A DNA stretch of 64,000 bases from positions 3,236 to 67,235 of the forward strand of contig ONRL01000002.1 of the NCBI GenBank assembly GCA_900320225.1, in the 5' to 3' direction. Positions 40,705 to 41,610 of this stretch are shown here, in pieces. Each line of letters begins with the position of its first letter. Within the stretch, counting starts at the first letter, position 1. Source of the stretch: an uncultured Lentisphaerota bacterium (lineage in GTDB: Bacteria; Verrucomicrobiota; Kiritimatiellia; RFP12; UBA1067). The notes beneath the pieces were generated by a model. The model was not told the origin of the DNA. It made no database searches and was given only the letters and a program-made list of their open reading frames with translations. The translations under genes were made by a program, and so were the position numbers.

Positions 40705-41610
40705 ATGCAAAAGTACATACGATGCCACATGGTCGAAGCCGAGCCGATGACGCGCGGAGACTATAACATCTCTCGCGGCGAGCCGTGCAATCTGAACGGA
40801 GCGCCAGAAGACGAGGGCTACCATGTCGTCCATCCCGACGGCTACGAGTCGTGGTGCCCCAAGGCGCAGTTCGAAGCCGCAGGCCGTCCAATCGACAGCA
40901 TGACGTTCGGCATGGCGATCGAAGCCATGAAGAAAGGCGCGAAGGTCGCCCGTCGCGGCTGGAACGGCAAGGGTATGTTCCTGTGGCTGAAACCAGCGAC
41001 AAGCATCAAGGCGGAGTGGTGCAAGGATGAAACGCTGAAAGGTCTCGTCGAAGCCAACGGCGGCGAAATCCTCGGCCTCGGCACCATCTGCATGTACACG
41101 CACGACGCCACGGGCCGCAAGGCAATTCTTACGGGTTGGCTCGCTTCGCAGTCCGATATGCTCTACGAAGATTGGGTTGTCGTGGAGAATGCCGCCGCCA
41201 ACACCATCCGCATCGAGGCCGGCGTCCGCTATCCAGAAGACGGCAACATCAACTGCATTGCCGACGACAACGACAACCCAAAGATGCCATTCCTTGTGCC
41301 AGATCCCGACAGCAAAGGCGAATGGCGCTGGAACCTCGACGTCAACATCGACACCGGCGAGGTCTCCGACTGGCCGAAGGGCGTTGTTGCCGATGTCCAC
41401 TACAAGGTCTGCGACTGCTGCCGCATTAAGTACGGCGACAAGAATTACGAGAACTACGTCCCGGACTTCCTGTCTATCAACGACGAAGGTTATGGGGACT
41501 ATGTGATACTCACCGTAGAAGACGGACGAATAAAGAACTGGGACGCCGCCAAATGCCGTGGCTTCATCAATGATTATCTCGCCATAACCGACACACAGAA
41601 GGAGGACTAA
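40705..41610 (+). CDS. Three-domain protein with a central DUF2829 (Tad2-like) domain (301 aa)
   Basis: The centre, [30 protein letters not shown]...[17 protein letters not shown], matches the DUF2829 pattern. The N-terminal ~60 aa include [22 protein letters not shown]. The C-terminal ~140 aa are unassigned. Confidence 0.65.
   Translation: [301 protein letters not shown]

Follow-up and report, generated by a model that had tools for sequence, protein, structure and literature searches.

A Tad2-type phage protein flanked by two modules without a Pfam model

Introduction

A main way in which phages silence signalling immunity (Thoeris, CBASS and Pycsar) is by sponges, proteins that sequester the alarm molecules of these systems, and earlier new sponge families were recognized as fusion partners of known sponges in a screen that relied on Pfam. 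The DNA considered here, a window of 64,000 nucleotides (nt) of contig ONRL01000002.1 (assembly GCA_900320225.1, from an uncultured Lentisphaerota bacterium), belongs to a phage of ~67.6 kb and holds, at 40705..41610 on the plus strand, an ATG-initiated open reading frame (ORF) of 301 amino acids (aa), in which the ORF listing, Pfam and AlphaFold2 delineate a Tad2-like sponge domain between an N-terminal (N) and a C-terminal (C) module. The question raised by this locus is what such a protein does, and what two modules that escape Pfam contribute to a sponge.

A sequence-only reading of the window, whose coordinates and quoted motifs for the ORF are exact, had proposed a DUF2829 (Tad2-like) signal sponge with further domains that could add ligand pockets or an enzymatic activity. 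The analysis described here makes it rather probable that the product is a phage counter-defence protein, composed of a Tad2-type sponge of TIR-made ADP-ribose signals and two accessory modules. The Tad2 domain was already known as a family; what is new is the architecture, an exchange of Tad2 for Acb4 within it, and the two undescribed modules, of which N is found on all four sponge families examined and C links sponges with enzymes that rebuild nicotinamide adenine dinucleotide (NAD).

The Tad2-like core

The central domain (residues 65-161; 40897..41187, plus strand) is a member of the Tad2 family by profile, fold and conservation of the residues that contact glycocyclic ADP-ribose (gcADPR). 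Pfam PF11195 ('Tad2-like', formerly DUF2829) aligns all 73 of its profile positions with residues 66-160 (E=1.6e-20; 73.8 bits, the cut-off being 25), in agreement with the location of ~65-160 first put forward, and phmmer searches of PDB sequences retrieved HgmTad2/AcrIIA7 (best E=1.5e-17), SptTad2, ModTad2 and SPO1 Tad2, with E-values between 1.5e-17 and 7e-10. The full protein was modeled as a monomer with AlphaFold2 from 75 homologues (mean predicted local distance difference test, pLDDT, 90.9; predicted TM score, pTM, 0.64). Comparison with Tad2 structures by Foldseek, which the sequence-only reading had suggested, yielded 24 PDB matches at E<=0.001, every one of them a Tad2 chain, with TM scores normalized to the target (TMt) of 0.64-0.86; the match to 8kbj has E=3.5e-8 and TMt 0.75. 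The model accordingly has the Tad2 fold, in which an N-terminal helix accompanies an antiparallel sheet with inserted loops.

The contacts made by characterized relatives allow the binding site to be followed residue by residue. HgmTad2 contacts gcADPR through W21, N22, G23, W87, L88, S90, T92 and D93, and its W21A/N22A and S90A/T92A/D93A mutants no longer bind the molecule (10.1101/2023.11.15.567273), while SPO1 Tad2 employs W25, N26, W73 and D79 (10.1101/2023.05.01.538930). The HgmTad2 positions align in the protein under study to W86, N87, G88, W145, L146, S148, S150 and D151; W86, N87, W145, S148 and D151 are present in 53/53 members of the clade, G88 in 51/53, and residue 150 is either S or T. 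The predicted pocket signature, a GWNG motif and a W..S.[ST]D motif, is kept. A missing DUF2829 profile or missing ligand-contacting residues had been named beforehand as grounds for giving up the sponge idea, and both the profile and the residues are there. Membership of the Tad2 family is secure, the core itself being an ordinary further member of this Pfam-named sponge family, and specificity for gcADPR is what the conserved site would predict; of the signal-sponge proposal, profile, fold and contact residues stand firm, and the choice of gcADPR as ligand stays conditional.

The core is interrupted by an insertion subdomain of ~34 residues (95-128; 40987..41088, plus strand), which aligns with the insertion that bears the cyclic-dinucleotide pocket of HgmTad2 and carries a clade-specific motif (W105 in 90% of members, C106 in 92%, N118-G119-G120 in 81-90%, L125/G126 in 94%). 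In the alignment the HgmTad2 contacts to the cyclic dinucleotide cGG, namely R31, D34, L36, S47, F70 and N85, are not conserved, the corresponding positions being K96, T99, I101, a gap, G and T143, and any second pocket borne by the insertion appears to have diverged from the cGG/cGAMP pocket of HgmTad2. As for other sponge domains, Pfam finds neither Acb4 (PF13876, at E<=1) nor Sequestin (PF21825) in the protein.

The N module

Both flanking domains announced by the sequence-only reading, of ~60 aa on the N side and ~135 aa on the C side, are real modules that recur separately. The N module (residues 1-62; 40705..40890, plus strand), delimited from the model, motifs, PHROG and hidden Markov models (HMMs), is a small alpha/beta domain with strands at residues 11-16, 37-42 and 48-52, helices at 17-23 and 53-59, and the motifs AxPMTRGxY and GYxVxYxDGYxSWxPKxxFE. 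Searches returned no Pfam match at E<=1, no sequence-profile relative in the PDB, no PADLOC identity and no Foldseek match in the PDB; PHROG families 9467, 872, 32732 and 18865, all of 'unknown function', match the module at their N-terminal ends. A Tudor_5 match of one N homologue (E=0.0012) fell below threshold and was not reproduced by fold search. Sequestin, Lockin and Acb5, compared with both N and C by HMMs and phmmer (LockinA-C, SequestinA-C and Acb5A/B, an 11-sequence database), gave E>0.05.

The module is found joined, invariably at the N-terminal end, to four structurally unrelated sponge families of differing oligomeric states, Tad2, Acb4, Sequestin and Lockin. N-Tad2 proteins of ~165-175 aa are very common among the homologues, and an N HMM run against published proteins detects N-Acb4 (E=3e-33), N-Sequestin (1e-31) and N-Lockin (3e-19) arrangements. 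The N motif occurs in 51/1331 published Acb4 homologues and, in the tables of Tal et al. (10.1101/2025.07.12.664507), in at least about 99 entries of the Sequestin table and 2 of the Lockin table; protein P0398 is an N-PF21825 fusion according to Pfam. The module goes unmentioned in the papers on Acb4 and on sponge fusions (10.1101/2024.12.30.630793, 10.1101/2025.07.12.664507). A homologue search by indexed words, with the 64 aa of N as query, gave 16 matches, from which any count of stand-alone N proteins would be biased. Some homologues are elaborated further: P0005, P0008 and P0064 place a ~50-aa helical insert between N and Tad2, and P0038 adds an ACP-like PF00550 domain to N-Tad2.

Positions conserved across divergent members are A12, P14, G38, Y39, S49, W50, P52 and F56, with no conserved charged residue. 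This Gly/Pro/aromatic set reads as a structural signature and argues against a conserved ligand pocket, and a generic accessory role would be the more natural assignment for N.

The C module

The C module (residues ~165-295; 41197..41589, plus strand), delimited from the model, motifs and homologue searches, is an acidic, beta-rich domain that ends in a C-terminal helix and carries the motifs VRYPEDG, YKVCD, YVPDFL and EGYGDY. A model of the domain on its own (pLDDT 89.8, pTM 0.83) has seven strands of at least 3 residues, followed by the helix. The module gave no Pfam match at E<=1, no PHROG match and no PADLOC identity; the best profile match among PDB sequences has E=0.18, the best Foldseek match among PDB structures has E=0.05 with TM<0.26, and the sole matches at E<=0.001 in BFVD are two phage proteins without assigned function. 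Its motifs are absent from the supplementary tables of the Sequestin, Lockin and Acb5 families. In the search for an identity of either flanking module, weak Pfam matches to SUKH_6 (E=0.037-0.07) and DUF3696 lay below threshold and were not reproduced by fold search, and the NAD kinase C-terminal domains that recur in Foldseek output (E ~1, TM ~0.2) are noise.

With 1,480 representative clusters at E<=1e-3 and 884 at 1e-10, the C family is a large one, and most of its members are stand-alone proteins of 130-165 aa. Near-invariant positions, counted within the 141-aa C fragment, are D19, W49, W63, Y73-K74-V75-C76-D77, Y91-V92-P93 and E101-G-Y-G-D105-Y106, a polar and aromatic set that would suit a pocket or an active site. 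The description of this domain as Cys-containing was accurate but not diagnostic, given that one Cys, that of YKVCD, is at least 90% conserved and no metal-binding Cys cluster exists; a Cys-based metal site was rejected. All 51 members analysed are acidic, with a core of ~127 aa, an isoelectric point of 4.05-5.10 (median 4.2) and a net charge of -5 to -23 (median -17). This acidity resembles that of protein or DNA mimics; the strong net negative charge would suit an Ocr/ArdA-like DNA mimic, but no fold similarity to solved mimics was seen.

The closest relatives of this C module belong to a NadE-linked clade (62-69% identity), being fused to NAD synthase or encoded directly 3' of it, in phage clusters that also hold NAPRTase, NadD-like, PncA and KptA genes. 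In L005 the C gene adjoins NadE; in L007, 5 bp separate a NAMPT/NAPRTase-like gene from a more distant family member that follows it. Gut jumbo phages with Preiss-Handler NAD clusters have been described, but the extra C domain goes unmentioned there (PMC11662467). Across the family, genes of recombination and replication are the most frequent neighbours, and stand-alone C genes occupy early recombination/replication regions, with RecT, YqaJ, VRR-NUC, an XPD-like helicase and Metallophos nearby.

Two sets of loci merit description in their own right. Near-complete NAD Preiss-Handler/salvage clusters (L003 4286-9503; L005 2463-8642 and 13625-14182; L007 1-6489; L010-L012) are carried by large phage contigs and comprise NAPRTase, NadD-like, NadE and PncA genes, some with KptA, RtcB or Thg1; a C-module gene is fused to or adjoins those of L003, L005, L007 and L010-L012, and L007 may hold a NARP1-like set, judging from its Pribosyltran (possibly Adps-like) and NAMPT-like genes. 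In one phage lineage (L092 4031-7262, L007 2118-7268) a stand-alone C gene constantly has an XPD-like helicase on one side and a Metallophos phosphoesterase on the other, with stop and start codons that abut or overlap.

Module exchange

The complete N-Tad2-C arrangement was encountered on this contig family only, although P0033 looks like a truncated second example. Its parts are found in other combinations: Tad2-C fusions (P0017, P0028, P0109, P0119), N-Acb4-Tad2 fusions (P0015, P0023, P0073 and one in a Verrucomicrobia metagenome-assembled genome, MAG), NadE-C fusions (six proteins) and a PncA-C fusion (P0323). Additional C-family fusions are YopX-C, DUF1653-C and ABC-ATPase-C.

The most telling relative is P0001, a metagenomic protein of 301 aa with the order N-Acb4(PF13876)-C, which is 76% identical to the protein under study in N and 80% in C. 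PF13876, the Acb4 family of cGAMP sponges (10.1101/2024.12.30.630793), occurs in P0001, P0015 and P0023. Sequence comparison presents the pair as a Tad2/Acb4 cassette swap inside a conserved N...C frame, a clean case of cassette exchange in anti-defence genes. A match of the local Tad2 HMM to P0001 proved spurious, MAFFT having forced its Acb4 segment into the Tad2 columns; in its middle domain Pfam finds PF13876 only. Beyond this pair, Tad2 and C identities to the present protein do not track each other (P0017, 53% in Tad2 and 60% in C; P0109, 70% and 47%), which argues that Tad2 and C have been fused repeatedly, in at least three combinations with that of the present protein included.

Fusions between sponges are functional and common, as illustrated by Acb4-Tad2 of phage Pm86, which blocks Thoeris and CBASS, and Sequestin itself was found through being a fusion partner (10.1101/2025.07.12.664507). 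Since N and C have no Pfam model, both are missed by fusion screens that are based on Pfam. If either were active, the catalogue of phage counter-defence parts would be enlarged, and the way in which phages couple the sequestration of signals to the restoration of NAD would become directly accessible to study.

Proposed mechanism and alternatives

The favored reading can be set out as follows. The protein would assemble into a homotetramer through its Tad2 domain, by analogy with other Tad2 proteins, and pockets at the protomer interfaces would bind the TIR-made alarm molecules derived from ADP-ribose (3'cADPR/gcADPR or a closely related compound) and keep them sequestered, such that a Thoeris-type effector would never be switched on. 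N and C would be accessory units drawn from a common pool of shuffled anti-defence parts: N a mostly structural module with a likely generic role in scaffolding, partner binding or stabilization, and C an acidic, beta-rich module capable of functioning by itself, which normally exists as an early phage protein of its own and would most likely contribute a second counter-defence activity, possibly aimed at NAD-centred immunity. We infer the tetramer, the identity of the ligand and any activity of N or C, the roles proposed for the two modules being drawn from fusion and neighbourhood patterns. That at least one of them by itself represents a new family of anti-defence proteins is a tentative proposal, for which C is the stronger candidate: it could bind or degrade an NAD-derived or nucleotide immune signal, or directly inhibit an NAD-consuming effector, with a fold that has yet to be solved, while N could be a universal 'sponge adaptor', tethering sponges, for example, to the signal source or the virion. 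The earlier suggestion of extra pockets or an enzyme in the flanks fares unevenly: the polar/aromatic conservation of C and the fusions with sponges and NAD enzymes favor it circumstantially, but C is acidic and has no known fold relative, and the conserved residues of N are structural.

Several observations weigh against this reading. All 18 experimentally tested Tad2 homologues (10.1101/2025.08.24.671296) are devoid of N and C modules, and the pTM of the monomer model makes the inter-domain geometry uncertain in the presence of bulky N and C. Tad2 homologues sequester 3'cADPR, His-ADPR, N7-cADPR, the cyclic dinucleotides cGG and cGAMP, and cUMP/cCMP (10.1101/2025.08.24.671296), and with ligands that vary so widely, family membership does not fix the ligand. 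The acidity of C contrasts with the positively charged pockets of known sponges (10.1101/2025.07.12.664507). As for the NAD connection, NAD genes lie within 10 kb of C in 3/80 IMG/VR loci, no neighbour family is common to more than 5/25 C clusters, and no NAD-synthesis gene is present in the window of this phage; an NAD association of the whole C family was rejected on the two counts, and is now confined to a clade.

Some of these points feed alternatives. The protein could be a sponge whose Tad2 ligand is not gcADPR but His-ADPR, N7-cADPR, a cyclic mononucleotide or a cyclic oligonucleotide, perhaps with the insertion pocket as its main site. Tad2 homologues are indeed inhibitors of CBASS, Pycsar and three types of Thoeris, in many cases by way of a second pocket at a different interface (10.1101/2025.08.24.671296), and the insertion at residues 95-128 has a highly conserved motif of its own; the residues of the canonical ADP-ribose site are nevertheless invariant, only ~1% of Tad2 proteins are estimated by Li et al. 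to be without a functional gcADPR site (10.1101/2023.11.15.567273), and the HgmTad2 cGG contacts are replaced (R31 by K, D34 by T, F70 by G, N85 by T). This departure from gcADPR is regarded as somewhat unlikely. The best PDB sequence matches carry the names 'Inhibitor of Type II CRISPR-Cas system' or AcrIIA7 in their database entries, from which one might conclude that the protein is an anti-CRISPR of that type; however, Li et al. could repeat the inhibition of Cas9 by HgmTad2/AcrIIA7 neither in vitro nor in vivo, demonstrating a gcADPR/cGG sponge instead (10.1101/2023.11.15.567273), Yirmiya et al. are of the same view (10.1101/2023.05.01.538930), and the anti-CRISPR explanation is highly improbable.

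The remaining alternatives concern C. It may be an acidic protein or DNA mimic of the Ocr/ArdA/gp5.9 type that inhibits a nuclease or defence effector and binds no small molecule, in which case the protein would pair signal sequestration with direct inhibition. The acidity of 51/51 members, the location of the gene after a methyltransferase (anti-restriction) block and the early recombination/replication setting of stand-alone C genes are in keeping with a mimic, but the conserved D19, W49, W63, Y73, K74, D77, Y91, D105 and Y106 are residues that one would sooner expect in a pocket or active site than on a surface-charge mimic, no structural similarity to solved mimics was found, and the NadE and PncA fusions would go unexplained; a mimic is considered unlikely. 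Those fusions (six proteins with NAD synthase, P0323 with nicotinamidase), the adjacency of C to NadE in L005 and to the NAMPT/NAPRTase-like gene in L007 within phage Preiss-Handler/NARP-like clusters, the nearness of this C to the NadE-linked clade and its conserved acidic, Lys and aromatic residues are what would be expected if C were a small enzyme acting on NAD or on metabolites derived from it, or a module that binds them, and supported NAD homeostasis, the protein then countering both arms of Thoeris, its signal through Tad2 and its NAD depletion through C. Most C members, however, have no NAD gene nearby, nor does this phage in the window, and no resemblance to NAD-binding proteins was found in fold or sequence, the NAD kinase matches (E ~1, TM 0.2) being insignificant, and we hold this explanation to be as doubtful as mimicry. 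A Tad2-type sponge with two accessory modules remains the reading preferred here.

The phage and the surroundings of the gene

The gene is preceded by a Shine-Dalgarno-like AAAGGAG at 40691..40697 (plus strand), 7 nt 5' of the ATG as read from the sequence, which constitutes a strong ribosome-binding site. Nine metagenomic contigs encode the identical 301-aa protein, the longest measuring 67,647 bp and recurring in several samples; an identical length of 67,647 bp across samples suggests a complete phage genome, and this contig (e.g. ena:ERZ27280420:k141_938721) is probably just that, with the 64-kb window covering most of it. On the minus strand, the block of genes at 1-15 kb includes those for a major head protein, a portal-like protein and a virion protein. 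Replication genes, one of them for a helicase with an intein, share the plus-strand block at 16-45 kb with three methyltransferases. The nearest genomic relatives of the 301-aa protein occur in a Verrucomicrobia MAG, Victivallis vadensis and a Kiritimatiellae MAG, which makes a gut member of the Planctomycetes-Verrucomicrobia-Chlamydiae (PVC) group the probable host.

As the sequence-only reading had observed, the gene sits directly after a methylation/anti-restriction cluster. This co-directional upstream block (33429..40680, plus strand), which lies outside the 301-aa protein and is considered here for context only, includes genes on the plus strand for a C5 methyltransferase (33429-35096), an S-adenosylmethionine-dependent (SAM) methyltransferase (37955-38848) and an N6/N4 methyltransferase (39043-40680), the last of which ends 24 nt before the gene. 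A scan for promoters and terminators at 37.5-45.5 kb gave results at chance level and is uninformative on expression timing; gene order is the sole basis of the plausible label 'early protein'. Within the methyltransferase block, a gene at 35528-36232 (plus strand) codes for a product that combines YdcK beta-solenoid repeats with a bactofilin-like domain, and directly 3' of the 301-aa gene, at 41819-43159 (plus strand), lie genes for a LemA-family protein and an adjoining 258-aa protein without family match.

Further genes of the window deserve mention. The helicase at 27347-30067 (plus strand; ResIII/SNF2/Helicase_C) is split by an intein in which Hint and LAGLIDADG homing-endonuclease domains are found. 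At 21226-22413 on the minus strand, antisense to the surrounding early genes, is a gene for a protein with an Mrr-type restriction endonuclease domain (Mrr_cat, with ZorD-like nuclease matches in PADLOC), which may be a phage-borne defence or exclusion gene. A giant ORF of 4142 aa at 45306-57734 (minus strand), with AAA_34, ResIII, Helicase_C_4, LPD23 and LPD38 domains, resembles a 'polyvalent protein', a type thought to enter with the DNA and act against defences. In the regions 43780-43796 and 43923-43960, TGGAGCGGGCGATGGGAATCGAACCCACC reads as a tRNA 3' end in reverse complement and the T-arm-like GGGTGCGAATCCCA is located close by, both just 5' of an integrase/recombinase-like ORF of 410 aa (44093-45325, plus strand) without a Pfam match. 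ARAGORN detects no complete tRNA there, and the region is probably an attP (phage attachment site) core matching a host tRNA gene, in which case the phage would be temperate.

Comparison with known systems

Among characterized proteins, HgmTad2/AcrIIA7 (PDB 8KBI-8KBM) and SptTad2 (8WJD) are similar in fold (44-46% identity, E=3.5e-8, TMt 0.72-0.77), share with the 301-aa protein a long insertion between core strands, and have gcADPR-site residues that are identical or conservatively replaced; they differ in being of ~100 aa, without N and C, and the HgmTad2 cGG/cGAMP contacts R31, D34, F70 and N85 are not kept in the phage protein, whose insertion has a motif of its own. SPO1 Tad2 (8SME/8SMF/8SMG), the founding anti-Thoeris sponge, has the DUF2829 fold in common (TMt ~0.7-0.78), with equivalents of its W25, N26, W73 and D79 kept, but is a single domain of 89 aa with a short insertion and 32-36% identity. 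The fusions Acb4-Tad2 (Pasteurella phage Pm86), Tad2-Sequestin and Sequestin-Acb4 (10.1101/2025.07.12.664507) likewise combine small anti-defence modules on one polypeptide; they join known sponge families, whereas the partners here, N and C, fall outside the known sponge families and are not covered by any Pfam model. Finally, the phage NadE-C fusions of Preiss-Handler clusters carry a C module that is 66-69% identical to the one described here, attached, however, to an NAD synthase rather than to a sponge.

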